Notes: a model not told the origin generated them from the letters alone. Positions 8,601-37,680 are shown, numbered from the stretch's first letter. The stretch is 64,000 nt of DNA from Escherichia coli (GCF_017348835.2 NZ_CP071375.1); one strand, 5' to 3'. A program made the numbers and translations.

Positions 8601-9490
8601 GTGGCTCGCTGATACTGGATTTCGGCCCCCGCAAATTCACCGTTGGTTTTGACGAAACCTTAAAACCTGTAGTGTGCGATGCAAACGGCAAAGTCCTGAA
8701 AGATTTACCTAAGCCAAACCAGAGCGATGATAAAACACTGGCAACTGACGCAGTTAATCTCTTCAAACAGTTGAAAAAAGATGTTCGTGCTATCGCCAGC
8801 CAGCAAATTACCCGTCTGGAACAGGCTATGTGCCAGCGCAGACGCTGGACGGCAGAGCAGTTCCGCCTGTTTCTGGTGGAGCATCCGCTGGTACGTCACT
8901 TAACCCGACGGCTGTTATGGGGAGTATATACTGAGGAAAACACGCTGATTGCCTGCTTCCGGGTCGCAGAAGATAGCACTTACAGCGATGCGCAGGAAGA
9001 GCTATTCACGTTACCAGCAGGAAACATCGGTATTCCGCATGTGCTGGAAATATCCCCTGAATCCGCCGCTGCATTCAGGCAAATTTACGCTGATTACGAA
9101 CTGCTTCCCCCTTTCCAACAGCTCGAGCGAGGTAGCTATCACCTTGCTGATAATGAACGTAATACTCACGAACTGACACGCTGGCAAGGACGGCTTTGCC
9201 AGGCCGGACGCATTGTCGGGCTGGAACGCCGAGGCTGGCAACGTCTGGAAGAAAGCGGCAGCGTTTATGCGATGCGCAAAACAACCCCTCATGGCGATCT
9301 CGAACTTGAAACGGAACCTTTTTCATTAATTTATGGTGAAACGGGGTATGGCGACCAGCTACCGGTTGAAAGCGTAAAAATCACCTCGCCAGATGATCGC
9401 TACGGTAAACAATCCTCACTCACTTTCTCCATGCTCGACGACATCACCGCCAGCGAGCTGATTAACGACATCGAATCACTGTTTGATTAA
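5690..9490 (+). CDS. molR: MolR-family giant protein, copy 1: N-terminal WGR-like module plus conserved C-terminal region (recalled as DUF4132); intact here
   Basis: 1266 aa uninterrupted ORF; N-terminus FIYQDEKSHKFWAVEQQDNELHIRWGKVGTNGQ looks like a WGR domain; C-terminal ~450 aa align with the next two ORFs. Confidence 0.85.
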   Translation: MRHFIYQDEKSHKFWAVEQQDNELHIRWGKVGTNGQSQIKSFSDAAAAAKAELKLIAEKTKKGYVENASANVHISPITKATPEVETSPESKNQRPWLADDAVIPVTDDINRFAFPHRSRPREINYLRKDGEIWKRIADNTRAYDPDNNYRSYPENWQQAFAELQRRILDNQQTGSAQSDAALLWSFWNSYSADELVDDLVIRCGLESAVEIALFALQLKYKPVKGAVTTIIPPNHEAESLPSWHQRLCHHLSLASEDEWQRCVDKVLTAIPTLSPARQPFAALLLPERPDIAHAIALRYADQNVPAITWLSMMVSDDVALAIQEIYGFPPLYNDFRKYLATLLANNGMRGVSRILLKLPVDYPVKYTDLFTHIHANAEDLVKWLWKTNHPDAIQILILGVNGKKKHLEYLSKACQKHPAAAIAAYATLLAIHENNEWRKALVKLITATPELVCEVIPWVNAKAAGILSECRPLPVAEECEYATVDMLPELLVAPPWIINKKKNVIPVFDLPVLPIPAVTDITPGITELISHTDISRFSEIAQYQASQQTLFTDLPLIEKESWETSFIPFTPEQQILWQLGFNEWLHCENDLHEKKYIPQSAVDALLRFDFPALKAEFAKYHNNANKSWNLSALCYLPGQQAISFLNQIIIEERYSGEKEILAVFGSTAIPAFMTCLQRDHQRLWIFTLFIGASELALPMAQRLQKKMGYKDAVNWLANNPRHAAAGLLPLALGKPCQNREYARQALLLLVKLNQRETIEEITQGYNQPDVLAALATLFDSDPLEEYPAKIAPLPGFYQFPLWRRPRLKSNNLPLPDDTMRHLGTMLSFPRDITSYAGLAIIKETFTRESLADFGWDLYTAWTEAGAPAKENWAFTSLGILGNDDTARKLTPLIRAWPGESQHKRAVYGLDVLASIGSDIALMLLNGIAQKIKFVALQEHASDRINMVAENRGLTMAELEDRLAPDLGLDSSGSLILDFGPRKFTVGFDETLKPVVCDANGKVLKDLPKPNQSDDKTLATDAVNLFKQLKKDVRAIASQQITRLEQAMCQRRRWTAEQFRLFLVEHPLVRHLTRRLLWGVYTEENTLIACFRVAEDSTYSDAQEELFTLPAGNIGIPHVLEISPESAAAFRQIYADYELLPPFQQLERGSYHLADNERNTHELTRWQGRLCQAGRIVGLERRGWQRLEESGSVYAMRKTTPHGDLELETEPFSLIYGETGYGDQLPVESVKITSPDDRYGKQSSLTFSMLDDITASELINDIESLFD

Positions 9491-9502
9491 AAGGATTTAA
9501 CA

Positions 9503-12500
9503 ATGAAAACCTATATTTATCAGGACGAAAAATCACATAAATTCTGGGCGGTGGAGCAGCAGAGAAACGAGCTGCATATTACCTGGGGTAAAGTCGGCAC
9601 TAACGGGCAAAGTCAGGTAAAAAGCTTTGCAGATGCTGCGGCGGCGGAAAAAGCGGAACTGAAGCTGATTGCGGAGAAGGTGAAGAAGGGGTATGTGGAG
9701 CAAGTAGACGCTAACGCTCACTCACATGATGCCTCAGCAAAGAAAGTCCTGGTCACAGAGGAAAAAGCCTCAATAAATCACCAGGCAGCAACTAATGGTT
9801 TACCCTGGCTGGCAGATAACGATCCCATTATTCTTCCCCCGAATATTGCCCGCCATGCCCTCAGCCACCGCCTTTGGCCGGGAGAGCCAGTAAAAAAGCC
9901 AACCAAACCCGAGAAACAAAATTTAATTTCCCGATTGGCAAATCGTACTTATCATTATTATAAAAATCTGACTTTCGATTACAGCTCATGCTCTGATGAA
10001 TGGGCTGATGCGATTAGCCAGGCAATCAGCTTAATTAAGGCCCAAAAGACTGAGATACCCGCGCGTACTATGGCGGTACTTACTTTTCTGGAAATATGTT
10101 TTTGTCAGGGCTGGAATGATGAAACCTCACCCGAGTTGCTGGATGAAATTGTAAGCACCTTCGGTATCGAATACGCAACTGAAACTGTCATCTTCTGGTG
10201 GCAAATTGATTTCGATTTTGACTATAAAGATGAACATTTGACTTTCTTTATTAATTATGGAGATAGCAGCAAGGACAGTTATAGAAGGAATAACGACAAA
10301 TTTAGTTTACGTCTGCGTAAACATTTATCACTAGCAGAAGAAGAAGTATGGCAAAATTGCATTGCAAAATTACTCGTTGCGTTACCAGATATATCACTCT
10401 ATCGCCAACCGTTAATTGCCATTTTAATGCCAGAAATACCCGAAGTGGCCCATGAGATCGTACATCGTTTACACCAGGTCGCAGATGTTCCACAACTTGA
10501 AATGTTGAAACTGGTAGCGACAGATCCATTCACGCTCGAAATACTGGAGAACTATCAATACATTGATGTATTTAACACCTATGGTGCCAGTTGGTCAGCT
10601 ACGGTATTACGGGAGCAAGGTATAGCGGCACTGGCTCGCCTGGCTCCCTATGCTGAAGAAGATAATTGCGGTGACGTACTGAAATGTATTAATCATCCGT
10701 TGGCCATTACGGCACTCATCGAAGCCGCCGATACTAATAAACGCTGTTATGAACGACTAATAAAAAGTGCCGAAAATTTTCCTTCTGCAACGATAGTGGC
10801 ATTAGCCGAAGCATTGGTAAAAAAAGATGATAAACGCAAACATATGTTGCTGGTTTCATTACTTAATGCAAATCCTTTATTGGTCGAAAAATTAGTCATC
10901 GGATTATCGTCGCAAGCGGCAAATTTATTGCAACAATGTCAGCAATTGCTGAATAGTCGCAATGAAGATTTTGCAAACTCAGAAATTCTACCAATGGTAC
11001 TAGTCTCGCCGCCCTGGGAAACTCAAAATAAAAATAACGACAACAGTCCTGTGGGTAAATACCCGGCGAAAATCCCCCCTTTGCCGTTGTTTTATCAACC
11101 TCCATTATGGACTCGCCCGAAACTCAAAAATAGCAGCAAGGTACTGCCAGATAGCGCCCTCCTCCACCTCGGTGAAATGCTCCGCTTCCCTCAGGAAGAG
11201 GCTCTGTATCCGGGATTATTGCAGGTGAAAGATGCCTGTACCGCCGACTCACTGGCTGAATTTGCCTGGGATCTGTTTACCGCCTGGCTGACTGCGGGCG
11301 CACCGTCGAAAGAGAGTTGGGCGTTCACTGCGTTAGGCGTTCTTGGTAACGATGACACCGCTCGCAAACTGACGCCATTAATCCGCGCCTGGCCTGGTGA
11401 ATCCCAGCATAAACGCGCCACCGTCGGGCTTGATATCCTCGCCGCTATCGGTAGTGATATCGCCCTGATGCAGCTTAACGGCATTGCTCAGAAACTGAAA
11501 TTCAAAGCTTTACAGGAGCGGGCGAAAGAGAAAATTGCCGACATTGCTGAAAGCCGCGAACTCACGGTGGCGGAGCTTGAAGATCGGTTAGCACCAGATC
11601 TCGGTCTGGATGATAACGGTTCGTTGCTGCTGGATTTCGGCTCACGCCAGTTCACCGTCAGCTTTGATGAAACCTTAAAACCGTTTGTGCGTGATGTTTC
11701 TGGCAGCCGTCTGAAAGACCTGCCCAAACCAAACAAAAGCGATGATGAATCACAGGCGAACGATGCTGTTAACCGCTACAAACTGCTGAAAAAAGATGCG
11801 CGTACCGTCGCCGCCCAGCAGGTAGCAAGGCTGGAATCCGCCATGTGCCTGCGTCGCCGCTGGTCACCGGAAAACTTTCAGCTCTTCCTGGTTGAGCATC
11901 CGCTGGTTCGCCACTTAACCCGCCGTCTGATTTGGGGCGTTTATAGCGCCGAAAACCAGCTGCAGGCTTGCTTTCGCGTAGCGGAAGATAACAGCTACAG
12001 CACCGCTGACGATGATCTTTTCACCCTGCCGGAAGGCGATATCTCTATTGGTATTCCTCACGTTCTGGAAATATCACCGACGGATGCTGCCGCCTTTGGT
12101 CAGCTTTTTGCCGACTACGAACTGTTACCACCGTTCCGCCAGCTTGACCGTAACAGTTACGCCCTGACAGAAGCCGAGCGCAACGCCAGCGAACTGACCC
12201 GCTGGGCAGGCAGAAAATGCCCGAGCGGTCGGGTAATGGGGCTGGCGAATAAAGGCTGGATAAAGGGCGAACCACAGGATGGAGGCTGGATCGGCTGGAT
12301 GATCAAACCTCTGGGCCGCTGGTCGTTAATCATGGAAATCGATGAAGGCTTTGCAGTGGGTATGTCACCAGCCGAACTTAGCGCTGAGCAGCTCTTAAGC
12401 AAGCTGTGGCTATGGGAAGGCAAAGCGGAAAGCTATGGCTGGGGGAGTAATTCAACACAGGAAGCGCAGCTCTCCGTACTCGATGCCATCACCGCCAGCG

Positions 12501-12535
12501 AGCTAATTAACGATATTGAAGCCCTGTTTGAATAA
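9503..12535 (+). CDS. MolR-family paralog, copy 2: WGR-like N-terminus plus conserved C-terminal region
   Basis: 1010 aa ORF starting 13 nt after copy 1; N-terminal 65 aa nearly identical to copy 1, with a 34 nt identical DNA run at 5705-5738 and 9518-9551; C-terminus ends ...ITASELINDIEALFE like copy 1. Confidence 0.85.
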   Translation: MKTYIYQDEKSHKFWAVEQQRNELHITWGKVGTNGQSQVKSFADAAAAEKAELKLIAEKVKKGYVEQVDANAHSHDASAKKVLVTEEKASINHQAATNGLPWLADNDPIILPPNIARHALSHRLWPGEPVKKPTKPEKQNLISRLANRTYHYYKNLTFDYSSCSDEWADAISQAISLIKAQKTEIPARTMAVLTFLEICFCQGWNDETSPELLDEIVSTFGIEYATETVIFWWQIDFDFDYKDEHLTFFINYGDSSKDSYRRNNDKFSLRLRKHLSLAEEEVWQNCIAKLLVALPDISLYRQPLIAILMPEIPEVAHEIVHRLHQVADVPQLEMLKLVATDPFTLEILENYQYIDVFNTYGASWSATVLREQGIAALARLAPYAEEDNCGDVLKCINHPLAITALIEAADTNKRCYERLIKSAENFPSATIVALAEALVKKDDKRKHMLLVSLLNANPLLVEKLVIGLSSQAANLLQQCQQLLNSRNEDFANSEILPMVLVSPPWETQNKNNDNSPVGKYPAKIPPLPLFYQPPLWTRPKLKNSSKVLPDSALLHLGEMLRFPQEEALYPGLLQVKDACTADSLAEFAWDLFTAWLTAGAPSKESWAFTALGVLGNDDTARKLTPLIRAWPGESQHKRATVGLDILAAIGSDIALMQLNGIAQKLKFKALQERAKEKIADIAESRELTVAELEDRLAPDLGLDDNGSLLLDFGSRQFTVSFDETLKPFVRDVSGSRLKDLPKPNKSDDESQANDAVNRYKLLKKDARTVAAQQVARLESAMCLRRRWSPENFQLFLVEHPLVRHLTRRLIWGVYSAENQLQACFRVAEDNSYSTADDDLFTLPEGDISIGIPHVLEISPTDAAAFGQLFADYELLPPFRQLDRNSYALTEAERNASELTRWAGRKCPSGRVMGLANKGWIKGEPQDGGWIGWMIKPLGRWSLIMEIDEGFAVGMSPAELSAEQLLSKLWLWEGKAESYGWGSNSTQEAQLSVLDAITASELINDIEALFE

Positions 12536-12544
12536 GGAAAGAGC

Positions 12545-15500
12545 ATGGACAAGGAATTACCGTGGCTGGCTGATAACGCCCAACTGGAACTGAAATATAA
12601 AAAGGGTAAAACACCACTCAGCCATCGCAATTGGCCGGGCGAACCAGTGCCTGTTATCACTGAAAGCATCATTCAGACACTGGGTGATGAATTGCTACAA
12701 AAAGCTGAGAAGAAAAAAAACATTGTCTGGCGTTATGAAAATTTTTCACTGGAGTGGCAGTCCGCCATCACGCAGGCCATCAACTTGATCGGCGAACACA
12801 AACCCTCAATCCCGGCCCGGACAATGGCGGCGCTAGCCTGTATCGCGCAAAATGACAGCCAACAGTTGCTCGACGAAATCGTCCAACAAGAGGGGCTGGA
12901 ATATGCGACTGAGGTGGTGATTGCACGCCAGTTTATTGCGCGGTGTTATGAGAGTGATCCTCTGGTAGTGACATTGCAGTATCAGGACGAGGATTATGGC
13001 TATGGTTATCGCTCAGAAACCTATAACGAATTCGATCTCCGACTGCGTAAGCATCTCTCTCTGGCAGAGGAAAGCTGCTGGCAGCGTTGCGCCGACAAAC
13101 TCATTGCCGCACTACCAGGAATAACCAAAGTTCGCCGCCCTTTTATTGCGCTGATCCTCCCGGAAAAACCAGAAATAGCCAATGAGTTGGTAGGCCTTGA
13201 ATGCCCGCGAACTCATTTTCATTCTAAGGAGTGGTTAAAAGTTGTTGCTAATGACCCCACAGCGGTGAGAAAACTCGAACACTACTGGAGCCAGGATATA
13301 TTTAGCGATCGAGAAGCCAGCTACATGTCGCATGAAAACCACTTCGGCTACGCGGCCTGCGCCTCCCTTTTGCGCGAACAAGGACTGGCAGCCGTTCCGC
13401 GCCTGGCAATGTATGCTCATAAAGAAGATTGCGGCAGTCTGCTGGTACAAATTAACCATCCGCAAGTCATCCGCACCTTGCTGTTAGTTGCTGATAAAAA
13501 CAAACCCAGCCTGCAACGTGTGGCTAAATACAGTAAAAACTTCCCCCATGCGACGCTCGCCGCACTGGCAGAACTGCTGGCGTTAAAAGAACCACCAGCC
13601 CGCCCTGGTTATCCAATCATCGAAGACAAAAAGCTGCCTGCACAGCAAAAAGCTCGAGATGAATACTGGCGTACGCTGTTACAAACGCTGATGGCATCGC
13701 AGCCACAACTGGCAGCAGAAGTGATGCCGTGGTTAAGTACTCAAGCCAGGGCAGTGCTGAAGAGTTATTTATCGGCACTGCCAAAACCGGTTATTGATGG
13801 CACCGATAACAGCAATCTGCCTGAAATCCTCGTTTCACCACCGTGGCGTAGTAAGAAAAAAATGACAGCTCCACGTCTTGATTTGGCACGGCTCGAATTA
13901 ACTCCGCAAGTTTACTGGCAACCAGGCGAACGAGAGAGGCTTGCCGCCACTGAGCCTGCCCGTTATTTCAGCACGGAATCTCTTGCGGAACGCATGGAAC
14001 AAAAAAGTGGACGAGTTGTATTACAGGAACTGGGTTTTGGGGATGATGTATGGCTGTTTTTGAATTATATACTCCCCGGAAAACTGGATGCTGCACGCAA
14101 TTCACTCATTGTTGAGTGGCATTACTACCAGGGGCGGGTTGAAGAGATCCTGAATGGCTGGAACTCCCCGGAAGCACAATTAGCAGAACAGGCGCTTCGC
14201 AGCGGTCACGTAGAAGCGTTAATTAACATATGGGAAAATGACAACTACTCACGTTATCGTCCGGAAAAGAGTGTCTGGAACCTGTATTTATTGGCACAGT
14301 TGCCGCGTGAGATGGCTTTGACCTTCTGGCTGCGTATCAATGAGAAAAAACATCTGTTCGCGGGTGAGGACTATTTTCTCAGTATCCTCGGATTGGATGC
14401 GCTACCAGGTCTGCTGTTGGCTTTTTCACATCGTCCAAAAGAAACATTTCCGTTAATTTTAAATTTTGGCGCAACAGAACTGGCCCTGCCTGTTGCCCGC
14501 GTCTGGCGACGTTTCGCGGTGCAGCGTGATCTGGCTCGCCAGTGGATTTTACAATGGCCGGAACATACGGCTACTGCACTTATCCCTCTTGTCTTCACCA
14601 AATCTAGCGATAAAAGCGAAGCTGCATTACTTGCCCTGCGTTTACTTTACGAACATGGGCATGGCGAATTGCTACAAACTGTAGCCAATCGTTGGCAGCG
14701 TACAGATCTATGGCCTGCCCTGGAACAATTACTTAAACAGAGTCCAATAGAGATTTACCCGGCACGCATTCCAAAAGCCCCTGATTTCTGGCATCCGCAA
14801 ATGTGGTCCAGGCCGCGCCTTATCACTAATAATCAAACTGTTACCGATGACGCTCTGGAAATTATCGGCGAAATGCTGCGCTTTACCCAGGGGGGACGTT
14901 TTTATAGCTGGCTGGAACAACTGAAAACGTTCTGCCAGCCACAAACGCTGGCAGCTTTTGCCTGGGATCTCTTCACTGCGTGGCAACAAGCTGGTGCCCC
15001 CGCAAAAGACAACTGGGCATTTCTGGCGTTAAGTCTCTTTGGTGACGAAAGCACGGCACGGGATCTGACGACACAGATCCTCGCCTGGCCACAAGAAGGC
15101 AAATCTGCCCGTGCTGTCAGCGGCCTGAACATCCTTACCCTGATGAATAATGATATGGCGCTGATACAGCTGCATCATATATCGCAACGGGCTAAATCCC
15201 GCCCCTTACGTGATAACGCGGCGGAATTTCTTCAGGTGGTCGCAGAAAATCGCGGGCTAAGCCAGGAAGAGCTAGCGGACAGATTAGTCCCAACCCTGGG
15301 CCTTGATGATCCGCAGGCGTTGAGTTTTGATTTTGGTCCCCGGCAGTTTACCGTTCGCTTCGATGAAAACCTCAACCCGGTTATCTTTGATCAGCAAAAC
15401 GTTCGCCAGAAAAGCGTTCCCCGGTTGCGCGCCGATGACGATCAACTGAAAGCGCCCGAGGCACTGGCCCGACTAAAAGGGCTAAAAAAAGATGCCACTC

Positions 15501-16177
15501 AGGTGAGCAAAAACCTGCTCCCGCGTCTTGAAACGGCCCTACGTACCACCCGACGCTGGTCGCTGGCAGATTTTCATTCTCTGTTTGTTAATCATCCCTT
15601 TACCCGTCTGGTTACCCAGCGATTAATATGGGGGGCTTATCCGGCAAATGAACCGCGTTGTTTACTCAACGCCTTTCGTGTGGCCGCAGAGGGGGAGTTC
15701 TGCAATGCGCAAGATGAGCCCATTGGCCTGCCTGCGGATGCTCTGATTGGCATTGCCCACCCGTTAGAAATGGCAGCAGAAATGCGCAGTGAATTTGCAC
15801 AGCTTTTTGCCGATTACGAAATTATGCCGCCTTTTCGCCAGTTGGCGCGGCGCACGGTGCTGCTGACGCCTGACGAGTCAGCCAGTAACAGCCTGACTCG
15901 CTGGGAAGGTAAATCCGCTACCGTTGGGCAACTTATGGGAATGCGATACAAAGGCTGGGAGTCAGGCTATGAGGACGCATTTGTCTATGACTTAAGTGAA
16001 TACCGGCTGGTCCTTAAGTTTTCACCCGGTTTTAACCACTACAATGTTGATAGCAAAGCGCTAATGAGCTTCCGTTCTCTTCGAGTGTACCGTGACAATA
16101 AATCCGTCACTTTTGCCGAACTTGATGTGTTTGATTTGAGTGAGGCGTTAAGCGCACCTGACGTCATTTTCCATTAA
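12545..16177 (+). CDS. yehI: MolR-family paralog, copy 3: conserved C-terminal region but no WGR module
   Basis: 1210 aa ORF starting 10 nt after copy 2; shares the conserved blocks (e.g. ...FAWDLFTAW...GAPAK.NWAF...) but has a different N-terminus and C-terminal tail. Confidence 0.85.
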   Translation: MDKELPWLADNAQLELKYKKGKTPLSHRNWPGEPVPVITESIIQTLGDELLQKAEKKKNIVWRYENFSLEWQSAITQAINLIGEHKPSIPARTMAALACIAQNDSQQLLDEIVQQEGLEYATEVVIARQFIARCYESDPLVVTLQYQDEDYGYGYRSETYNEFDLRLRKHLSLAEESCWQRCADKLIAALPGITKVRRPFIALILPEKPEIANELVGLECPRTHFHSKEWLKVVANDPTAVRKLEHYWSQDIFSDREASYMSHENHFGYAACASLLREQGLAAVPRLAMYAHKEDCGSLLVQINHPQVIRTLLLVADKNKPSLQRVAKYSKNFPHATLAALAELLALKEPPARPGYPIIEDKKLPAQQKARDEYWRTLLQTLMASQPQLAAEVMPWLSTQARAVLKSYLSALPKPVIDGTDNSNLPEILVSPPWRSKKKMTAPRLDLARLELTPQVYWQPGERERLAATEPARYFSTESLAERMEQKSGRVVLQELGFGDDVWLFLNYILPGKLDAARNSLIVEWHYYQGRVEEILNGWNSPEAQLAEQALRSGHVEALINIWENDNYSRYRPEKSVWNLYLLAQLPREMALTFWLRINEKKHLFAGEDYFLSILGLDALPGLLLAFSHRPKETFPLILNFGATELALPVARVWRRFAVQRDLARQWILQWPEHTATALIPLVFTKSSDKSEAALLALRLLYEHGHGELLQTVANRWQRTDLWPALEQLLKQSPIEIYPARIPKAPDFWHPQMWSRPRLITNNQTVTDDALEIIGEMLRFTQGGRFYSWLEQLKTFCQPQTLAAFAWDLFTAWQQAGAPAKDNWAFLALSLFGDESTARDLTTQILAWPQEGKSARAVSGLNILTLMNNDMALIQLHHISQRAKSRPLRDNAAEFLQVVAENRGLSQEELADRLVPTLGLDDPQALSFDFGPRQFTVRFDENLNPVIFDQQNVRQKSVPRLRADDDQLKAPEALARLKGLKKDATQVSKNLLPRLETALRTTRRWSLADFHSLFVNHPFTRLVTQRLIWGAYPANEPRCLLNAFRVAAEGEFCNAQDEPIGLPADALIGIAHPLEMAAEMRSEFAQLFADYEIMPPFRQLARRTVLLTPDESASNSLTRWEGKSATVGQLMGMRYKGWESGYEDAFVYDLSEYRLVLKFSPGFNHYNVDSKALMSFRSLRVYRDNKSVTFAELDVFDLSEALSAPDVIFH

Positions 16178-16237: not shown

Positions 16238-16555
16238 ATGATCGTGCAAAAAGAGCTGGTTGCTATTTACGATTATGAGGTCCCTGTACCTGAAGATCCG
16301 TTTTCCTTCAGACTTGAGATCCATAAATGCTCTGAATTATTTACAGGTTCCGTCTATCGACTGGAGCGATTCCGGCTACATCCAACATTTCGTCAACGTG
16401 ATCGAGAAGATGCTGACCCGCTAATAAATGATGCGTTGATTTATATAAGAGATGAGTGTATTGATGAGCGGAAATTACGAGGTGAATCACCTGAAACTGT
16501 AATAGCAATTTTTAATCGTGAACTACAGAATATATTCAACCAAGAAATAGAATAA
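16238..16555 (+). CDS. yehK: Small cytoplasmic protein of unknown function
   Basis: 105 aa ORF downstream of yehI, preceded by a stem-loop (CGGGCAGT-GATGCAA-CTGCCCG at 16186-16208). Confidence 0.75.
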   Translation: MIVQKELVAIYDYEVPVPEDPFSFRLEIHKCSELFTGSVYRLERFRLHPTFRQRDREDADPLINDALIYIRDECIDERKLRGESPETVIAIFNRELQNIFNQEIE

Positions 16556-16664: not shown

Positions 16665-16754
16665 TTACTTCAACAAATCAATCAACCGTAACAGAGCTAC
16701 TAATAGCTCCAGTACAGCAATGAGCACGGTTAACTTTTGTGTCAGCGTGTCCAT
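16665..16754 (-). CDS. zorO: 29 aa hydrophobic type I toxin peptide (ZorO-like)
   Basis: Reverse-strand ORF MDTLTQKLTVLIAVLELLVALLRLIDLLK, one predicted TM helix, AGGAG RBS 7 nt upstream, ~175 nt 5' UTR from a TATAAT at 16941-16936; UTR carries a 20-mer complementary to the divergent sRNA. Confidence 0.65.
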   Translation of the reverse strand: MDTLTQKLTVLIAVLELLVALLRLIDLLK

Positions 16755-16935
16755 CCGCTCTCCTTATTAAGGAGCGCAACACCAGCACCTTACCCTTACA
16801 CTGCCTGTCGATACTGGTTTACGTATGTTGGACCACGATGTTGCACTCCGGATCAGGGCACCACCTGCAGCACCACCCGTCCGGTAGCCAGGACTTGAAA
16901 TAGGTTCGATCCGGCGCAACGTCCCAACGGTCTGG

Positions 16936-16986
16936 ATTATAAATCTCATTATCTTAATTGCAACGGGGTCCAGCCGTGGTTATAAT
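16936..16986. promoter_or_regulatory. Back-to-back sigma70 promoters for the toxin mRNA (-) and antitoxin sRNA (+), sharing a palindromic -35
   Basis: Plus strand: TTGCAA (16958-16963), 17 nt spacer, TATAAT (16981-16986). Minus strand: the same palindromic TTGCAA, 16 nt spacer, TATAAT (complement of 16936-16941). Confidence 0.55.
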
Positions 16987-16992
16987 TCGTTC

Positions 16993-17077
16993 GTTGGAAC
17001 ACGATGTTGCACAGGCTGTGGTGTTAGGCCTGAAAATAGTAAATAAAAGAACCTGCCTCACCAGCAGGTTTTTTTAT
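16993..17077 (+). ncRNA. orzO: Candidate antitoxin small RNA (OrzO-like), ~85 nt
   Basis: Predicted start ~7 nt after the consensus -10; 5' end GTTGGAACACGATGTTGCAC repeats 16827-16846 (GTTGGACCACGATGTTGCAC, one mismatch) inside the toxin 5' UTR; ends at terminator ACCTGC-CTCACCA-GCAGGTTTTTTT (17050-17077). Confidence 0.55.
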
Positions 17078-17186
17078 TTACTGTGATCTGCTTTCCAGAT
17101 ATTTTTCGCTCAAACAACTAATGCGCCAAACATTTATTGCGCGTAAAATATCGTTTATTTCATTAATACATTTCAGGGATGAATAT

Positions 17187-18275
17187 ATGTCACCGCAGAA
17201 TAATCATCTGCAGCGTCCGCCTGCTGCTGTGTTATACGCCGATGAACTGGCAAAATTAAAACAAAATGATACCGCACCTTGCCCGCCCGGTTGGCAGTTA
17301 AGTTTGCCTGCGGCCCGTGCTTTTATCCTTGGCGATAGCGCGCAAAATATTAGCCGTAAAGTGGTGATTAGTCCCTCCGCTGTCGAACGTATGTTAGTCA
17401 CTCTTGCCACCGGACGCGGTTTGATGTTGGTGGGGGAACCTGGCAGCGCAAAATCTCTCCTGTCTGAATTACTGGCAACCGCTATTAGCGGCGATGCCGG
17501 GTTAACCATCCAGGGCGGCGCATCTACTACCGAAGATCAAATCAAGTACGGCTTGAACTACGCCCTGCTTATCAATCATGGTCCATCAACGGAAGCGCTG
17601 GTCCCTGCCCCGCTTTACCAGGGAATGCGCGACGGCAAAATCGTCCGTTTTGAAGAGATAACGCGTACACCGCTGGAAGTGCAAGACTGTCTGTTAGGTA
17701 TGCTTTCTGACAGGGTGATGACGGTGCCGGAACTCACTGGTGAAGCCAGTCAGCTCTATGCGCGAGAAGGCTTTAATATTATTGCCACTGCCAATACCCG
17801 CGATCGCGGCGTCAATGAAATGAGTGCTGCGCTAAAGCGTCGCTTCGATTTTGAAACTGTCTTTCCGATTATGGATTTCGTCCAGGAGCTGGAGCTTGTC
17901 GCCAGTGCTTCGGCGCGTTTGCTGGCCCATAGCGGTATTCCGCATAAAGTGCCTGACGCGGTACTGGAGTTACTGGTCCGCACCTTCCGCGATCTGCGTG
18001 CCAACGGCGAAAAGAAAACGTCAATGGATACACTAACAGCGATTATGTCCACCGCTGAAGCCGTGAACGTGGCCCACGCTGTGGGCGTCCGCGCCTGGTT
18101 TTTAGCGAATCGCGCAGGTGAGCCAGCCGATCTGGTGGACTGTATTGCCGGAACCATCGTCAAAGATAACGAAGAAGATCGCGCTCGTCTGCGCCGTTAC
18201 TTCGAACAGCGAGTCGCCATACATAAAGAAGCTCACTGGCAGGCTTATTATCAAGCCCGCCACCGCCTGCCGTGA
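17187..18275 (+). CDS. yehL: MoxR-type AAA+ ATPase
   Basis: Walker A LVGEPGSAKS; Walker-B-like IVRFEEITR (Glu where Asp is usual); sensor-1-like IIATANTRD; RRF arginine finger; start taken at MSPQNNH inside ORF 17121..18275. Confidence 0.85.
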   Translation: MSPQNNHLQRPPAAVLYADELAKLKQNDTAPCPPGWQLSLPAARAFILGDSAQNISRKVVISPSAVERMLVTLATGRGLMLVGEPGSAKSLLSELLATAISGDAGLTIQGGASTTEDQIKYGLNYALLINHGPSTEALVPAPLYQGMRDGKIVRFEEITRTPLEVQDCLLGMLSDRVMTVPELTGEASQLYAREGFNIIATANTRDRGVNEMSAALKRRFDFETVFPIMDFVQELELVASASARLLAHSGIPHKVPDAVLELLVRTFRDLRANGEKKTSMDTLTAIMSTAEAVNVAHAVGVRAWFLANRAGEPADLVDCIAGTIVKDNEEDRARLRRYFEQRVAIHKEAHWQAYYQARHRLP

Positions 18276-18285
18276 GGAAAGATGC

Positions 18286-20565
18286 ATGAGCGAGCCGTTA
18301 ATTGTCGGCATCCGGCATCATAGCCCGGCCTGCGCCCGGCTGGTGAAATCGTTAATCGAAAGCCAGCGGCCACGATACGTGTTGATTGAAGGCCCGGCTG
18401 ATTTTAATGACCGGGTATACGAACTGTTTTTAGCCCACCAGCTTCCGGTAGCTATTTACAGTTATTGCCAGTATCAGGACGGTACGGCCCCCGGGCGCGG
18501 TGCCTGGACGCCATTTGCTGAATTTTCGCCGGAGTGGCAGGCGCTACAAGCCGCACGTCGTATTCAGGCACAAACTTACTTCATCGATTTGCCTTGCTGG
18601 GCACAGAGTGAAGAAGAGGACGATTCGCCTGATACGCAAGATGAAAGCCAGGCCTTACTGCTGCGTGCCACCCGCATGGATAACAGCGATACCCTGTGGG
18701 ATCACTTGTTCGAAGATGAAAGCCAGCAAACTGCATTACCCTCTGCGCTGGCGCACTATTTTGCCCAACTGCGGGGCGACTCCCCCGGAGATGCACTCAA
18801 TCGTCAGCGCGAAGCCTTTATGGCCCGCTGGATTGGATGGGCGATGCAGCAAAATAATGGCGACGTGTTAGTTGTCTGCGGTGGCTGGCACGCTCCGGCA
18901 CTGGCAAAAATGTGGCGCGAATGTCCGCAGGAAATTAACACGCCAGAATTGCCGTCGCTGGCAGATGCCGTTACAGGTTGTTATCTCACACCCTACAGTG
19001 AAAAGCGCCTTGATGTGCTGGCAGGATACCTTTCCGGAATGCCTGCCCCGGTCTGGCAAAGCTGGTGCTGGCAGTGGGGCTTACAGCAGGCGGGAGAACA
19101 ACTGCTAAAAACGGTTCTTACCCGTTTGCGCCAACACCACTTGCCTGCTTCGACCGCGGATATGGCTGCCGCTCATCTGCATGCGATGGCGCTGGCACAG
19201 TTGCGCGGACATAAACTACCGTTACGCATTGACTGGCTGGATGCCATAGCAGGCTCGCTGATTAAAGAAGCCCTGAACGCGCCGTTGCCGTGGAGCTATC
19301 GCGGCGTTATTCATCCCGACACCGATCCGATTCTGCTAACGTTGATAGACACATTAGCGGGTGACGGATTCGGTAAACTTGCCCCTTCTACGCCACAACC
19401 GCCTCTGCCAAAAGATGTCACCTGCGAACTGGAACGTACCGCAATCTCTCTTCCGGCGGAGCTTACCTTAAATCGCTTTAACCCCAATGGACTAGCGCAA
19501 AGTCAGGTGTTACATCGGCTGGCAATACTGGAGATCCCAGGGATTGTACGCCAGCAGGGAAGCACACTGACACTTGCAGGCAACGGTGAAGAACGCTGGA
19601 AATTAACCCGCCCGCTTAGCCAGCATGCGGCATTGATTGAGGCCGCCTGCTTTGGTGCCACACTCCAGGAAGCCGCACGCCATAAATTAGAAGCCGATAT
19701 GCTGGACGCGGGTGGAATCGGCAGTATCACCACATGTCTTAGCCAGGCGGCGTTAGCGGGTCTGGCGTCCTTCAGTCAACAATTACTGGAGCAACTCACA
19801 TTATTAATCGCCCAGGAAAATCAATTTGCCGAAATGGGCCAGGCGCTGGAAGTGCTATATGCCTTATGGCGGCTGGATGAAATTAGCGGTATGCAAGGCG
19901 CGCAGATATTACAAACGACGTTATGCGCGGCTATCGATCGCACGCTCTGGCTGTGTGAATCCAACGGCAAACCGGATGAAAAGGAGTTTCACGCTCACCT
20001 GCATAGCTGGCAGGCGCTTTGCCATATCCTGCGCGATCTACATAGCGGCGTTAATTTACCCGGCGTTTCTCTTTCTGCGGCGGTAGCCTTACTGGAGCGA
20101 CGCAGTCAGGCAATCCATGCCCCGGCGCTGGATCGCGGCGCGGCTCTTGGCGCACTGATGCGTCTGGAACATCCCAACGCCAGTGCCGAAGCGGCGCTGA
20201 CGATGCTGGCACAGTTTTTCCCGGCACAATCCGGCGAAGCGCTGCACGGTTTGCTGGCGCTGGCCCGCCATCAACTGGCCTGTCAGCCGGCATTTATCGC
20301 CGGTTTCAGCAGTCATTTAAATCAACTAAGTGATGCCGATTTTATCAATGCCCTGCCCGATTTACGCGCGGCGATGGCCTGGCTACCGCCACGAGAACGC
20401 GGGACGCTGGCGCATCAGGTGCTTGAACATTATCAACTGGCGCAACTTCCCGTTTCGGCGCTGCAAATGCCGTTGCATTGCCCACCACAAGCCATTGCAC
20501 ATCATCAACAACTCGAACAGCAGGCACTGGCATCGCTGCAAAACTGGGGAGTTTTCCATGTCTGA
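18286..20565 (+). CDS. yehM: Large protein of unknown function in the MoxR/VWA operon
   Basis: 759 aa from MSEPLIVGIRHHSP, starting 11 nt after the yehL stop; ORF-track start 18118 overlaps yehL and is judged an over-extension. No motif I can name. Confidence 0.8.
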   Translation: MSEPLIVGIRHHSPACARLVKSLIESQRPRYVLIEGPADFNDRVYELFLAHQLPVAIYSYCQYQDGTAPGRGAWTPFAEFSPEWQALQAARRIQAQTYFIDLPCWAQSEEEDDSPDTQDESQALLLRATRMDNSDTLWDHLFEDESQQTALPSALAHYFAQLRGDSPGDALNRQREAFMARWIGWAMQQNNGDVLVVCGGWHAPALAKMWRECPQEINTPELPSLADAVTGCYLTPYSEKRLDVLAGYLSGMPAPVWQSWCWQWGLQQAGEQLLKTVLTRLRQHHLPASTADMAAAHLHAMALAQLRGHKLPLRIDWLDAIAGSLIKEALNAPLPWSYRGVIHPDTDPILLTLIDTLAGDGFGKLAPSTPQPPLPKDVTCELERTAISLPAELTLNRFNPNGLAQSQVLHRLAILEIPGIVRQQGSTLTLAGNGEERWKLTRPLSQHAALIEAACFGATLQEAARHKLEADMLDAGGIGSITTCLSQAALAGLASFSQQLLEQLTLLIAQENQFAEMGQALEVLYALWRLDEISGMQGAQILQTTLCAAIDRTLWLCESNGKPDEKEFHAHLHSWQALCHILRDLHSGVNLPGVSLSAAVALLERRSQAIHAPALDRGAALGALMRLEHPNASAEAALTMLAQFFPAQSGEALHGLLALARHQLACQPAFIAGFSSHLNQLSDADFINALPDLRAAMAWLPPRERGTLAHQVLEHYQLAQLPVSALQMPLHCPPQAIAHHQQLEQQALASLQNWGVFHV

Positions 20566-21694
20566 ACTGAACGATCTTCTGACCACCCGTGAGCTACAAC
20601 GCTGGCGATTAATTCTTGGCGAAGCGGCAGAAACGACGCTTTGTGGGCTGGATGACAACGCCCGGCAGATAGACCACGCGCTGGAATGGCTGTATGGGCG
20701 CGATCCTGAACGGCTCCAGCGTGGTGAACGCTCCGGTGGATTAGGTGGCTCAAATCTCACCACCCCTGAGTGGATCAACAGTATTCACACGCTGTTTCCG
20801 CAACTGGTGATTGAGCGGCTGGAAAGCGATGCCGTACTGCGCTATGGCATTGAAGATGTGGTGACGAATCTCGACGTGCTGGAACGTATGCAGCCTTCTG
20901 AAAGCCTGCTACGCGCCGTTTTGCACACCAAACATCTGATGAACCCCGAAGTACTGGCTGCCGCCCGCCGGATAGTGCGCCAGGTTGTTGAAGAAATTAT
21001 GGCTCGACTGGCAAAGGAAGTTCGTCAGGCTTTTTCTGGTGTCCGCGATCGCCGTCGCCGCTCATTTATTCCACTGGCGCGAAACTTTGATTTCAAAAGT
21101 ACTCTTCGCGCCAACCTGCAACACTGGCACCCGCAACACGGCAAGTTGTATATCGAATCCCCCCGCTTTAACAGCCGCATTAAACGCCAAAGCGAACAAT
21201 GGCAACTGGTCTTACTGGTTGATCAAAGCGGCTCGATGGTCGATTCGGTGATCCACTCTGCGGTGATGGCGGCCTGTTTATGGCAGTTACCCGGCATTCG
21301 TACCCATCTGGTGGCGTTTGACACAAGCGTCGTTGATCTCACGGCAGACGTTGCCGATCCGGTAGAGTTATTAATGAAAGTGCAATTAGGCGGCGGAACC
21401 AATATCGCCAGTGCCGTGGAATATGGTCGGCAACTTATTGAACAACCAGCGAAAAGCGTCATTATCCTCGTGAGCGATTTTTACGAAGGGGGTTCATCAT
21501 CATTACTGACGCATCAGGTGAAAAAGTGTGTCCAGAGCGGCATCAAAGTGCTGGGACTGGCGGCGCTCGATAGCACCGCAACACCTTGCTATGACCACGA
21601 TACGGCCCAGGCGCTGGTAAATGTCGGCGCACAAATAGCCGCCATGACGCCGGGCGAGCTGGCATCATGGCTTGCGGAGAATCTTCAGTCATGA
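20558..21694 (+). CDS. yehP: von Willebrand factor A (VWA) domain protein with MIDAS motif
   Basis: 378 aa from MSELNDLL; start overlaps the yehM stop (ATGTCTGA); MIDAS-like LVLLVDQSGSM (DxSxS) at ~21221-21238; ORF-track start 20330 is an over-extension. Confidence 0.85.
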   Translation: MSELNDLLTTRELQRWRLILGEAAETTLCGLDDNARQIDHALEWLYGRDPERLQRGERSGGLGGSNLTTPEWINSIHTLFPQLVIERLESDAVLRYGIEDVVTNLDVLERMQPSESLLRAVLHTKHLMNPEVLAAARRIVRQVVEEIMARLAKEVRQAFSGVRDRRRRSFIPLARNFDFKSTLRANLQHWHPQHGKLYIESPRFNSRIKRQSEQWQLVLLVDQSGSMVDSVIHSAVMAACLWQLPGIRTHLVAFDTSVVDLTADVADPVELLMKVQLGGGTNIASAVEYGRQLIEQPAKSVIILVSDFYEGGSSSLLTHQVKKCVQSGIKVLGLAALDSTATPCYDHDTAQALVNVGAQIAAMTPGELASWLAENLQS

Positions 21695-23694
21695 ATTCAC
21701 TACGTCCGGAATTATTAGAACTGACACCGCAGGCACTGACGGCGTTAAGCAATGCCGGTTTTGTTAAGCGCAGCCTTAAGGAACTGGAAAATGGCAACGT
21801 CCCGGAAATCAGCCATGAGAACGGCGCTTTAATCGCCACCTTCAGTGACGGTGTCCGTACCCAGCTGGCGAACGGTCAGGCACTGAAAGAGGCTCAGTGC
21901 AGCTGCGGGGCCAGCGGCATGTGCCGTCATCGCGTGATGCTGGTGTTAAGTTATCAACGACTTTGTGCCACCGTCCAGCCCACGGAAAAAGAAGAAGAGT
22001 GGGATCCGGCAATCTGGCTGGAAGAACTGGCTACCCTGCCCGATGCCACCCGCAAACGCGCACAGGCGCTGGTCGCTAAAGGCATCACCATTGAGTTGTT
22101 CTGTACGCCGGGCGAAATTCCCTCTGCCCGCTTACCGATGAGCGATGTGCGTTTTTATTCCCGTAGCAGCATTCGTTTCGCCCGTTGTGATTGTATTGAA
22201 GGCACACTTTGCGAACATGTCGTACTGGCAGTACAGGCCTTTGTCCAGGCAAAAGCGCAGCAAGCGGAATTGACTCATTTAATCTGGCAGATGCGCAGCG
22301 AACACGTCACATCATCTGACGATCCGTTTGCCAGCGAAGAAGGCAACGCGTGTCGTCAATATGTTCAGCAATTAAGCCAGGCATTATGGCTTGGCGGCAT
22401 CAGCCAGCCGCTCATCCATTACGAGGCAGCATTCAACCGCGCATTGCAGGCGGCAGAGGCCTGCAACTGGCGCTGGATGAGTGAGTCACTACGACAGCTA
22501 CGGGCAAGCGTTGATGCCTTCCATGCCCGCGCCAGCCACTATCATGCCGGAGAATGCTTACGTCAGCTTGCGGCATTAAACAGTCGATTAAATTGCGCAC
22601 AAGAGATGGCGCGCCGCGACAGTATCAGTGAAGTTCCTCCCATGCCGTGGCGAACGGTGGTTGGCGCAGGCATTGCTGGCGAAGCAAAGCTTGATCATTT
22701 GCGGCTGGTGTCGCTAGGTATGCGTTGCTGGCAGGATATTGAGCAGTATGGTTTACGCATCTGGTTTACCGATCCCGACACCGGCAGTATTTTGCACCTT
22801 TCGCGCAGTTGGCCGCGAAGTGAACAGGAAAACTCACCGGCAGCGACGCGTCGGCTATTTAGTTTTCAGGCAGGCGCGCTGGCGGGTGGGCAAATTGTTT
22901 CACAAGCAGCAAAACGCAGTGCCGATGGCGAGCTGCTGTTAGCTACCCGCAACCGCTTGAGTAGTGTTATTCCACTGTCGCCAGACGCCTGGAAAATGCT
23001 GAGTACGCCGCTGCGCCAGCCGGGCATTGTGGCTTTGCGGGAATATTTACGCCAGCGTCCCCCCTCCTGCATACGGCCTCTTAATCAGGTCGATAACTTA
23101 TTTATTCTGCCGGTCGCTGAGTGTATTTCGCTCGGTTGGGATAGCAGCCGCCAGACGCTGGATGCGCAGGTAATCAGCGGCGAAGGTGAAGATAATCTGC
23201 TGACGTTATCACTGCCAGCCTCAGCCAGCGCGCCTTATGCCGTTGAACGCATGGCGGCGCTTTTGCAACAAACAGACGACCCCGTGTGTCTGGTTTCTGG
23301 CTTTGTCAGTTTTGTTGATGGGCAATTGACACTGGAACCACAGGTAATGATGACAAAGACTCGAGCCTGGGCGCTGGACGCAGAAACTGCGCCTGTGGTG
23401 GCATCACTACCTTCTGCCAGCGTTCTGCCTGTGCCGTCTACTGCTCATCAGTTGCTGATGCGCTGCCAGGCATTACTTATTCAACTGCTCCATAACGGCT
23501 GGCGCTATCAGGAACAGAGTGCTATTGGTCAGGCAGAGTTGCTGGCGAATGACCTCACCGCGGTGGGTTTTTATCGGCTGGCACATATGTTGGGACAATT
23601 TCGTAATACAGAAAGCGAGGCATGGGTAGAAGCAATGAATAACGGTGTTTTGCTGTGCGAACAATTATTCCCCATGCTTCAGCAACAAGGATGA
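21691..23694 (+). CDS. yehQ: Protein with two SWIM-type zinc-finger motifs
   Basis: Start ATG overlaps the yehP stop (ATGA); CxC...CxH motifs QCSCGASGMCRHRVM (~21898-21945) and CDCIEGTLCEHVV (~22185-22220). Confidence 0.85.
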   Translation: MNSLRPELLELTPQALTALSNAGFVKRSLKELENGNVPEISHENGALIATFSDGVRTQLANGQALKEAQCSCGASGMCRHRVMLVLSYQRLCATVQPTEKEEEWDPAIWLEELATLPDATRKRAQALVAKGITIELFCTPGEIPSARLPMSDVRFYSRSSIRFARCDCIEGTLCEHVVLAVQAFVQAKAQQAELTHLIWQMRSEHVTSSDDPFASEEGNACRQYVQQLSQALWLGGISQPLIHYEAAFNRALQAAEACNWRWMSESLRQLRASVDAFHARASHYHAGECLRQLAALNSRLNCAQEMARRDSISEVPPMPWRTVVGAGIAGEAKLDHLRLVSLGMRCWQDIEQYGLRIWFTDPDTGSILHLSRSWPRSEQENSPAATRRLFSFQAGALAGGQIVSQAAKRSADGELLLATRNRLSSVIPLSPDAWKMLSTPLRQPGIVALREYLRQRPPSCIRPLNQVDNLFILPVAECISLGWDSSRQTLDAQVISGEGEDNLLTLSLPASASAPYAVERMAALLQQTDDPVCLVSGFVSFVDGQLTLEPQVMMTKTRAWALDAETAPVVASLPSASVLPVPSTAHQLLMRCQALLIQLLHNGWRYQEQSAIGQAELLANDLTAVGFYRLAHMLGQFRNTESEAWVEAMNNGVLLCEQLFPMLQQQG

Positions 23695-37507: not shown

Positions 37508-37680
37508 GATGAGCATTCAGATAGTGGTTCACGCGCACGGGTTGCGCACCGCCGGAGTAAGGATTTACTGAGGCTAGCGACGCCATCATAACGAGCAAAA
37601 AGTGCGATCGTCAAAGGAGAATCGTGAGGAAATGCTGCATTGCTGACATTTACGCCAGCAATGCAACGTCAAAGAACTTT

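Follow-up and report, generated by a model that had tools for sequence, protein, structure and literature searches.

Several bacterial MoxR-class AAA+ ATPases are paired with a VWA protein. In CoxD-CoxE, NorQ-NorD, CbbQ-CbbO and RavA-ViaA, the gene of an AAA_5/MoxR ATPase lies beside that of a VWA protein with an intact metal ion-dependent adhesion site (MIDAS). In all characterized pairs, the AAA+ ring and the MIDAS adaptor remodel a dedicated client that is encoded nearby (PMC3893208, PMC7159879). YehL is one of seven named MoxR subfamilies and one of the two MoxR proteins of Escherichia coli K-12; neither the MoxR-VWA pairing nor the subfamily is new (PMC3893208). The subject here is the yehLMPQ gene cluster, positions 17187-23694 of a 64,000-nucleotide stretch of E. 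coli DNA (GCF_017348835.2, NZ_CP071375.1) that is called the window below. The window is E. coli chromosome, and its segment 17000-23800 is 100% identical to strain PE164. To our knowledge, YehL is the only MoxR subfamily without a known partner client or phenotype. We propose, at a probability of roughly 0.4, that in yehLMPQ a MoxR-VWA engine for remodelling is coupled to a scaffold with a TIKI-like hydrolase and has a SWIM protein and interchangeable WGR-DUF4132 proteins as partners.

Other described machines resemble parts of this arrangement. Class I chelatases (BchI-BchD-BchH and CobS-CobT-CobN) combine an AAA+ motor with a VWA/MIDAS subunit and a third subunit of very large size. Midasin, or Rea1, is, unlike the yeh module, one giant polypeptide acting on pre-ribosomes; its MIDAS domain grips an acidic residue of the client while the AAA ring pulls. 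The vWA-MoxR ternary conflict systems join a CoxD/CoxE-derived MoxR-vWA pair to extra large, variable components (Kaur et al. 2020, PMC7159879). Jumbo phages encode a MoxR-vWA pair whose vWA member is fused to a peptidase (PMC7824862).

The yeh module has the paired ATPase and VWA genes, and chaperone or remodeller logic is expected of it as in the MoxR-VWA pairs, its VWA protein being specifically of the CoxE type. It differs from those pairs in an invariant Glu-Glu rather than Asp-Glu Walker B, in three further obligatory partners (DUF5682/YehM, SWIM/YehQ and WGR-DUF4132) and in having no client enzyme such as Rubisco, NOR, CO dehydrogenase or LdcI/Nuo encoded near its genes. With the conflict systems it shares the large, variable components and the same taxonomic bias to Actinomycetota, Myxococcota and other large-genome bacteria (PMC7159879). 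Unlike them, it has neither VMAP nor iSTAND and no effector domains on the vWA protein, and SWIM, WGR, YehL and MolR are not mentioned in that work. Compared with the class I chelatases, DUF4132 has no relation to BchH/CobN, is present as several hypervariable copies and comes with a WGR domain, while YehM and YehQ have no chelatase counterpart. The jumbo-phage peptidase is a conventional metallopeptidase on the vWA protein itself, whereas the yeh module carries a predicted TIKI-fold domain on a separate scaffold. No PADLOC-DB 2.0 family matched YehI, YehK, YehL, YehM, YehP, YehQ or YehR at E<=0.01, and NCBIfam returned only weak matches below cut-off (GvpN, MadB, McrB and a cobaltochelatase subunit). 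The module is not a member of the VMAP/iSTAND conflict systems, the PADLOC systems or the class I chelatases.

Because the MoxR-VWA core is known and the YehL subfamily is named, the module is not categorically new. New against what a literature search could find are its five-component definition across phyla, the modelled DUF5682 domain that has a TIKI/TraB fold and looks catalytic, the invariant Glu-Glu Walker B, the YehM-YehP fusions and the hypervariable, mosaic WGR-DUF4132 array. Four "y-genes" thereby become a defined and widespread five-component module with concrete parts: a Glu-Glu Walker B, a MIDAS site, a putative His/Glu/Arg/His pocket in YehM, a YehM-YehP link and a WGR-DUF4132 specificity layer. 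It is a well-defined, widespread and experimentally tractable unknown in a model bacterium.

Organization and conservation of the yeh genes

The four open reading frames (ORFs) and their junctions were read from the sequence by six-frame ORF listing and translation and are identical to the RefSeq annotation of PE164 (Table 1). The genes yehM and yehP overlap by ATGTCTGA, and yehP and yehQ overlap by ATGA. Both overlaps had been given in an earlier model-made reading of the DNA (the original prediction), as had an 11-nucleotide gap between yehL and yehM that in fact measures 10 nucleotides (18276-18285). The motifs quoted there (GEPGSAKS, KRRF, IVRFEEI, DQSGSM, CSC..CRH and CDC..CEH) were all found in the sequence. 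The yehLMPQ genes are confirmed as real and tightly coupled. Coverage of the region reaches 80% or more in 5202 of 5426 complete E. coli genomes, for the most part at 95-99% identity, and its position in this species is fixed, in a core locus between metG and yehR.

At E<=1e-3, YehM homologues fall into clusters of 50% identity with 2253 representatives. When one genome per species was scanned with a single motif, a confirmed relative was present in at least 567 species, including Enterobacterales, Xanthomonadales, Burkholderiales, Myxococcota, many Actinomycetota and a metagenome-assembled genome (MAG) of Thermoanaerobaculia. Occurrence is patchy, with a bias to Actinomycetota, Myxococcota and Burkholderiales. 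In 84 loci, ORFs were called and classified with hidden Markov models built from the E. coli proteins, using coverage filters and first-round hits; loci were evaluable for YehL when enough upstream DNA was present, and for YehP and YehQ when at least 3.4 kilobases (kb) lay downstream. These loci span Gamma- and Betaproteobacteria, Myxococcota, Actinomycetota and Acidobacteriota. YehL-type genes were present in 82/82, YehP-type genes in 74/74 and YehQ-type genes in 72/74 evaluable loci, across five phyla, and the L-M-P-Q order was constant and always on one strand. Independent database gene calls with Pfam labels repeated this layout for Variovorax and for three contigs of metagenomic or MAG origin. 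When the nearest in-frame start codon was taken, a 4-nucleotide start/stop overlap joined M to P in 59 of 80 loci and P to Q in 59 of 76, and the L-M distance was 20 nucleotides or less in 77 of 81. Since this geometry is conserved across loci, the coupling is not an accident of E. coli. The tight coupling claimed in the original prediction thus holds well outside this species, and the co-occurrence of the four genes reaches far beyond Escherichia.

What had been described as a four-gene unit kept its order and coupling under this analysis, but not its size. Large DUF4132 proteins (1000-1450 amino acids), mostly with an N-terminal WGR domain, are encoded within 10 kb in 73 of 80 loci. Their gene normally lies directly upstream, often overlapping the start of the YehL gene, and lies downstream in three Burkholderia loci; two or three tandem paralogues occur in 26 of the 84 loci. 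In the window, the WGR/DUF4132 genes at 5690-16177 belong to the conserved module. Judged by gene content, the functional unit is five-part and begins at 5690, and 17187-23694 covers its conserved engine. No further neighbours were conserved across phyla, where only within-genus synteny and extra DUF4132 copies were found, so the module is self-contained. Among the 84 loci, the small gene yehK is restricted to Escherichia and yehR to Escherichia/Klebsiella. The genes sampled on either side of the module, both in E. coli and at distant loci, have housekeeping roles.

This conservation bears on the most sceptical account of the locus, that it is a silent remnant of evolution, or a set of unrelated genes that happen to be neighbors, and has no joint function. 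Parts of the system are indeed broken in some strains. In K-12 MG1655, molR is split into yehF and a yehH pseudogene, and YehQ has 614 instead of 667 amino acids, its 53 C-terminal residues being missing; in strain S88, yehM and yehK carry frameshifts. Silencing by H-NS in K-12 (PMC3686432) and the lack of phenotype reports in the literature are likewise what a remnant would predict. Against it stand ORFs retained in about 96% of the 5426 complete E. coli genomes, dozens of residues invariant across five phyla, a conserved gene order with 4-nucleotide overlaps, and the existence of gene fusions. The remnant account is very improbable and, on these conservation data, effectively refuted.

The ATPase, the VWA protein and the SWIM protein

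YehL matches Pfam AAA_5 (4.7e-33), with a weak AAA_3 match and a bpMoxR match at E 0.016. Its closest solved sequence relatives are the AAA domains of Midasin (1e-9) and the MoxR structure 2r44. Among 85 sequences, the Walker A residues G83, P85, G86, A88, K89 and S90 are invariant, as are sensor-1 N203, R218 and R219; F220, which completes the AL..RF arginine-finger motif, is kept in 83/85. YehL thus combines an AAA_5 core, a Walker A, a sensor-1 Asn and an arginine finger with an adjoining VWA gene (74/74 loci), as expected of a MoxR protein. Residue 87 (17445-17447), within Walker A, is Ser only in this strain and Thr in 84/85 sequences, including that of E. coli S88.

The Walker B of YehL reads V153-R154-F155-E156-E157-I-T-R, with E156 at the position where the MoxR hhhhDE motif has Asp. 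The original prediction had noted this substitution, and it is real: R154, F155, E156 and E157 are invariant in the 85 sequences, which come from five phyla. Because the Glu-Glu pair is invariant in these homologues, it is a signature of the subfamily and not a local decay.

YehP matches Pfam VWA_CoxE over residues 151-372 (6.7e-72), covering model positions 1-222 of 222. The MIDAS residues D222, S224 and S226 within D-Q-S-G-S, together with T281 and D307, each reach at least 95% conservation among 83 sequences. A helical region at the N-terminus (RWRLILG...) is likewise conserved and is typical of CoxE-type vWA proteins. The C-terminus of YehP coincides with the end of the VWA domain, and there is no effector fusion.

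YehQ is a putative zinc-finger protein. Its first SWIM motif matches Pfam SWIM at 9.7e-4 and its second at 0.21. Profile searches thus bear out the AAA+, VWA and SWIM assignments that had been proposed from motifs. The double-SWIM description fits E. coli, where both motifs are present, but the second is lineage-specific: the ligands of the first are conserved in 78/79 homologues and those of the second in about 35/79. Searches of the PDB with the YehP and YehQ sequences returned nothing meaningful. A cross-linking mass spectrometry paper that names YehQ was set aside, as the mention is a false match from an entrapment database.

Single polypeptides of about 1120-1180 amino acids that fuse YehM to YehP occur in at least four diverged clusters (P0171, P0232, P0254 and P0264) among 150 representatives, and P0232 is located in an otherwise canonical locus. 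These natural fusions are strong genomic evidence that YehM and YehP bind each other.

A second, partial module was observed in one locus (L087, 13598-19543), where it lies downstream of a canonical one whose YehM and YehP are fused. It consists of a 501-amino-acid protein, a HEAT_2 protein of 580 amino acids, an AAA_5 gene and a DUF5682 gene, and variant modules of this kind may swap DUF4132 for other helical-repeat partners.

YehM and the proposed mechanism

YehM, which the original prediction had called unannotatable, is a member of Pfam DUF5682 (1e-97), a recognized family of unknown function. Its AlphaFold2 model is confident, with a predicted local distance difference test score of 93.1 and a predicted template modelling score of 0.90. 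In the model, the N-terminal parallel beta-sheet core has the fold of the TIKI/TraB-PrgY-GumN/ChaN/erythromycin-esterase (Ere) superfamily, which includes the Ras protease RRSP and HopBA1. The best structural neighbor is the haem-binding protein ChaN; lower in rank are 2qgm, PMT (2ebf), EreC (6xcq) and RRSP (5w6l). Exactly these ChaN/2qgm/PMT/EreC/RRSP-type structures are grouped as the TIKI superfamily in the RRSP paper (PMC6254334). The rest of YehM is modelled as helical, with HEAT-like matches to symplekin, TAF6 and huntingtin and one stretch with weak AAA-lid or winged-helix-like matches. In contrast to other TIKI superfamily members, the YehM domain sits in a 759-amino-acid cytoplasmic scaffold tied to an AAA+/VWA engine and has no detectable sequence-profile similarity to them.

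Active TIKI members have a site of two His and two Glu residues and a conserved basic residue at the ends of parallel strands (PMC6254334). In an alignment of 73 YehM sequences, 28-64% identical to the query, the invariant residues include twelve in the N-terminal domain (Table 1), W138, and several Arg and Gly residues further on. The predicted strands place H11 after strand 1, E35 at the end of strand 2, D101 at the end of a strand and H202 after the strand 194-199, so that all four lie at C-terminal strand ends; R175 precedes H202 by 27 residues. YbaP (TraB) has the same motif order (GSIH41, VE67AD, R228/R233, GALH252), and the order and spacing in RRSP match YehM too. The invariant H11, E35, R175 and H202 thus follow the linear order, with similar spacing, of the catalytic set of active members, and E83, E143 and E176 are candidates for the second Glu. 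From the model and this motif logic, YehM probably carries a putative protease- or esterase-like hydrolase domain of the TIKI/TraB type, and the earlier statement that no catalytic effector domain is evident is probably wrong.

In the mechanism we propose, yehLMPQ would be the conserved engine of a cytoplasmic machine with five components, of which the fifth is the WGR/DUF4132 protein or proteins, here encoded at 5690-16177. YehL would form a MoxR-class AAA+ ring. YehP would be the adaptor of this ring and would be physically attached to YehM, a scaffold with a HEAT-like C-terminus bearing the TIKI/TraB/Ere-type hydrolase domain. YehQ and the WGR-DUF4132 proteins would recognize a target or signal, or would themselves be the clients. 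ATP-driven pulling by YehL through the YehP MIDAS contact would remodel the complex, and this remodelling would gate hydrolysis by YehM of the bound client, most likely as peptide-bond cleavage. From the MoxR-VWA precedents, the M-P fusions, the TIKI-type pocket and the variable partners, we infer such gated hydrolysis by YehL, YehP and YehM. The same inference takes in assembly of the complex, ATPase activity of YehL with its Glu-Glu Walker B, hydrolysis by YehM, which client is bound and what role the system plays in the cell. Should the hydrolase be real, a TIKI-type enzyme would here be coupled to a cellular MoxR-VWA engine for the first time.

The domain assignments, gene order, 4-nucleotide overlaps, invariant motifs, fusions, jumbo-phage precedent and self-contained nature of the module are counted in favor of the mechanism. 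Several points weigh against it. The second Glu of the 2His/2Glu motif could not be assigned in YehM from sequence. An hhalign comparison between YehM and a TraB/YbaP profile fell short of significance (probability 0.2%), a weak negative given a shallow TraB alignment of at least 65% identity, and no Pfam TraB, TIKI or Ere match to YehM was obtained at E<=10. With these negatives, the superfamily link rests on predicted structure: the TIKI assignment is one of modelled fold and motif logic and not of sequence homology. Searches of the PDB with YehM, as a single sequence and as a profile, also returned nothing meaningful. With Glu instead of Asp in the Walker B, turnover of ATP may be slow or regulatory. 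Parts are truncated or frameshifted in K-12 and S88, and the system is therefore dispensable in the laboratory. No functional study of yehL, yehM, yehP, yehQ, DUF5682, DUF4132 or molR was found in the literature.

The likeness to ChaN also bears on a different account, in which the module is a maturation or cofactor-insertion chaperone of the CoxD-CoxE, NorQ-NorD or class I chelatase type. YehL and YehP would then remodel DUF4132 clients or substrate carriers analogous to CobN/BchH, and YehM would be a ChaN-like, hydrolysis-free binder of haem, tetrapyrrole or metal. Haem-binding ChaN is the best structural neighbor of YehM, YehP belongs to VWA_CoxE and weakly matches the cobaltochelatase subunit family TIGR02442 (6e-4), and an AAA+ ring with a VWA/MIDAS protein and a partner of 110-150 kDa mirrors BchI/D/H and CobS/T/N. 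The characterized MoxR-VWA pairs all mature a neighboring client (PMC3893208, PMC7159879), and the flanks of the yeh loci are housekeeping genes and not defense islands. However, YehI and MolR show no resemblance to CobN/BchH, only WGR and DUF4132 being found in them. Neither one to three mosaic, hypervariable paralogues in a single species nor silencing by H-NS (PMC3686432) is expected of a cofactor enzyme, and the decay in K-12 comes with no known cofactor defect. The invariant His/Glu/Arg/His set of YehM is, moreover, the catalytic signature of active members of the fold. A chaperone of this kind appears somewhat unlikely.

The WGR-DUF4132 genes, regulation and neighboring features

YehI has no WGR head: it aligns from residue 95 of paralogue 1, so that the first ~95 residues are missing. 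Its identity is 31% to paralogue 1 over the full length and 40-44% to paralogue 2 in two blocks. The two DUF4132 genes upstream of yehI are at least 80% covered in only 530 of 5426 E. coli genomes, at 80-95% nucleotide identity, and yehI is intermediate (1897 genomes at 90-95%). S88 has two DUF4132 genes and this strain three. Between them, identity is 98% for YehL and 92% for YehI. In S88, the first DUF4132 gene (locus L088, 9002-12790) is a mosaic: its C-terminal 495 residues are 95% identical to paralogue 2 of this strain, and its N-terminal 520 residues are 46% identical to either paralogue here. Within E. coli, the engine is ~98% conserved and the DUF4132 genes are mosaic and hypervariable. 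In an ST131 sublineage, a blaCTX-M-15 transposon is inserted in the "metG/DUF4132/yeh" region (PMC9334617).

The WGR domain is regarded as the DNA-binding domain of MolR-like proteins (PMC7824862), and its presence in DUF4132 proteins fits a nucleic-acid input. With WGR and SWIM both regarded as DNA-binding modules, the suggestion in the original prediction of a nucleic-acid- or substrate-sensing machine is plausible.

Variability of this kind raises a reading that concerns the biological role and is compatible with the gated-hydrolysis mechanism: a biological-conflict system (anti-phage, anti-plasmid or kin discrimination), in which the WGR-DUF4132 proteins would be diversifying sensors for the nucleic acid or protein of an invader, the MoxR-VWA pair a threshold switch and YehM a protease-type effector. 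It would account for an engine conserved in 5202/5426 genomes beside extremely polymorphic DUF4132 genes (530 genomes), for the S88 comparison (YehL at 98% against an N-terminal half at 46%, with the C-terminal part swapped between paralogues) and for tandem arrays in 26/84 loci. The patchy distribution with the taxonomic bias of MoxR-vWA conflict systems (PMC7159879), the H-NS silencing and the insertion of a type I toxin-antitoxin locus beside the engine are also in keeping with it. Yet none of the seven proteins searched has a PADLOC match, and neither VMAP/iSTAND nor an effector fusion on the vWA protein is present. Phages essentially lack the module, true plasmids rarely carry it, its E. 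coli locus between metG and yehR is fixed and part of the core, the sampled neighborhoods are housekeeping, and no recognized toxic effector exists beyond the TIKI-like domain. A conflict role is regarded as unlikely.

The same doubt attaches to a bolder version, a previously unrecognized class of nucleoside triphosphate-dependent conflict or surveillance system. Recombining WGR-DUF4132 proteins would serve as allele-specific sensors of foreign DNA or RNA (through WGR and SWIM) or of proteins, the MoxR-VWA switch with its Glu-Glu Walker B would set the threshold, and the TIKI-type protease YehM would execute the response, all within a system that is core-genome in E. coli and H-NS-silent. If the variable array does sense invaders, it would represent a new immune architecture in the best-studied bacterium.

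A phage origin of the genes was considered and rejected. Seven PHROGs families match the yeh proteins (phrog_30700, 33984, 31592, 29006, 20839, 36602 and 36295), end to end, at near-identical lengths and with huge scores, as in phrog_29006 with 667/667 positions; they are read as host DNA and appear to be genes of the E. coli chromosome caught up in prophage predictions, which is a caveat for inferring phage origin from PHROGs. A tblastn search of 50,697 phage records gave only one weak partial match, to an unannotated 14-kb metagenomic contig.

In hns/stpA mutants, yehL and yehM are derepressed, and H-NS occupies the intergenic region upstream of them (PMC3686432). BglJ-RcsB activates the molR promoter, with which the DUF4132 array begins (PMC3950696). 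Work in K-12 is uninformative because the locus is silenced by H-NS and several parts are broken there; carrying damaged copies, K-12 is a poor background for functional tests. The set is intact in the present strain.

Table 1. Positions in the window of the yeh genes, their sequence motifs and adjoining features (aa, amino acids; sRNA, small RNA).
Feature	Position	Strand	Description
WGR + DUF4132 paralogue 1, MolR-like	5690-9490	+	1266 aa; RefSeq DUF4132; N-terminal WGR matches PDB 2ra8 (2.3e-16)
WGR + DUF4132 paralogue 2	9503-12535	+	1010 aa; Pfam WGR 7-69 (2.1e-17), DUF4132 734-919 (8.6e-52)
yehI	12545-16177	+	1210 aa; Pfam DUF4132 (4e-35); no WGR head
yehK	16238-16555	+	105 aa; small lineage-specific ORF; system membership doubtful
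zorO-like ORF	16665-16754	-	29 aa; reads MDTLTQKLTVLIAVLELLVALLRLIDLLK
OrzO sRNA	17000-17075	+	Rfam OrzO-P, 99.9 bits
Hairpin then T-run (zor-orz locus)	17050-17070
yehL	17187-18275	+	362 aa; AAA_5/MoxR-class AAA+ ATPase, YehL subfamily
YehL Walker A	17433-17456	+	GEPGSAKS, residues 83-90; six residues invariant in 85 sequences
YehL Walker B variant	17643-17657	+	VRFEE, residues 153-157; R154, F155, E156, E157 invariant
yehM	18286-20565	+	759 aa; DUF5682; predicted N-terminal TIKI/TraB/ChaN/Ere-fold domain, helical/winged-helix-like middle and HEAT-like C-terminal part
YehM TIKI-like domain (predicted)	18286-19035	+	~residues 1-250; invariant R10, H11, E35, H51, E83, D101, E143, R175, E176, G199, G200, H202
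yehP	20558-21694	+	378 aa; CoxE-type VWA, conserved N-terminal helical region
YehP MIDAS	21221-21235	+	D222-Q-S224-G-S226 (+ T281, D307)
yehQ	21691-23694	+	667 aa; SWIM zinc-finger protein: two SWIM units, helical bundle, beta-rich domain, C-terminal helical bundle
YehQ SWIM 1	21898-21930	+	C70-x-C72...C78-R-H80
YehQ SWIM 2	22186-22218	+	C166-x-C168...C174-x-H176

The spacer between yehK and yehL is 631 nucleotides here and 306 nucleotides in K-12, which lacks the zor-orz type I toxin-antitoxin locus found in it at 16665-17080. In 3392 of 5426 E. coli genomes, coverage of the zor-orz segment is 80% or more. The OrzO terminator lies between the DUF4132 and yehK genes on one side and yehLMPQ on the other; in most other taxa, the DUF4132 gene directly adjoins the YehL gene or overlaps it. 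Divergent promoter-like sites at 16936-16986 were rejected as a yehL promoter, as they belong to zor-orz.

In Variovorax (locus L002, 8387-8824), an unannotated 145-amino-acid ORF lies between the WGR-DUF4132 and AAA_5 genes, the position of yehK; no similarity of this ORF to YehK was detected. A small protein encoded at this place may be an optional part that recurs. Elsewhere in the window, and unrelated to yehLMPQ, a Peptidase-S11 cis-regulatory RNA motif of Rfam was found on the minus strand at 37512-37592 (72.8 bits against a gathering score of 34.8).

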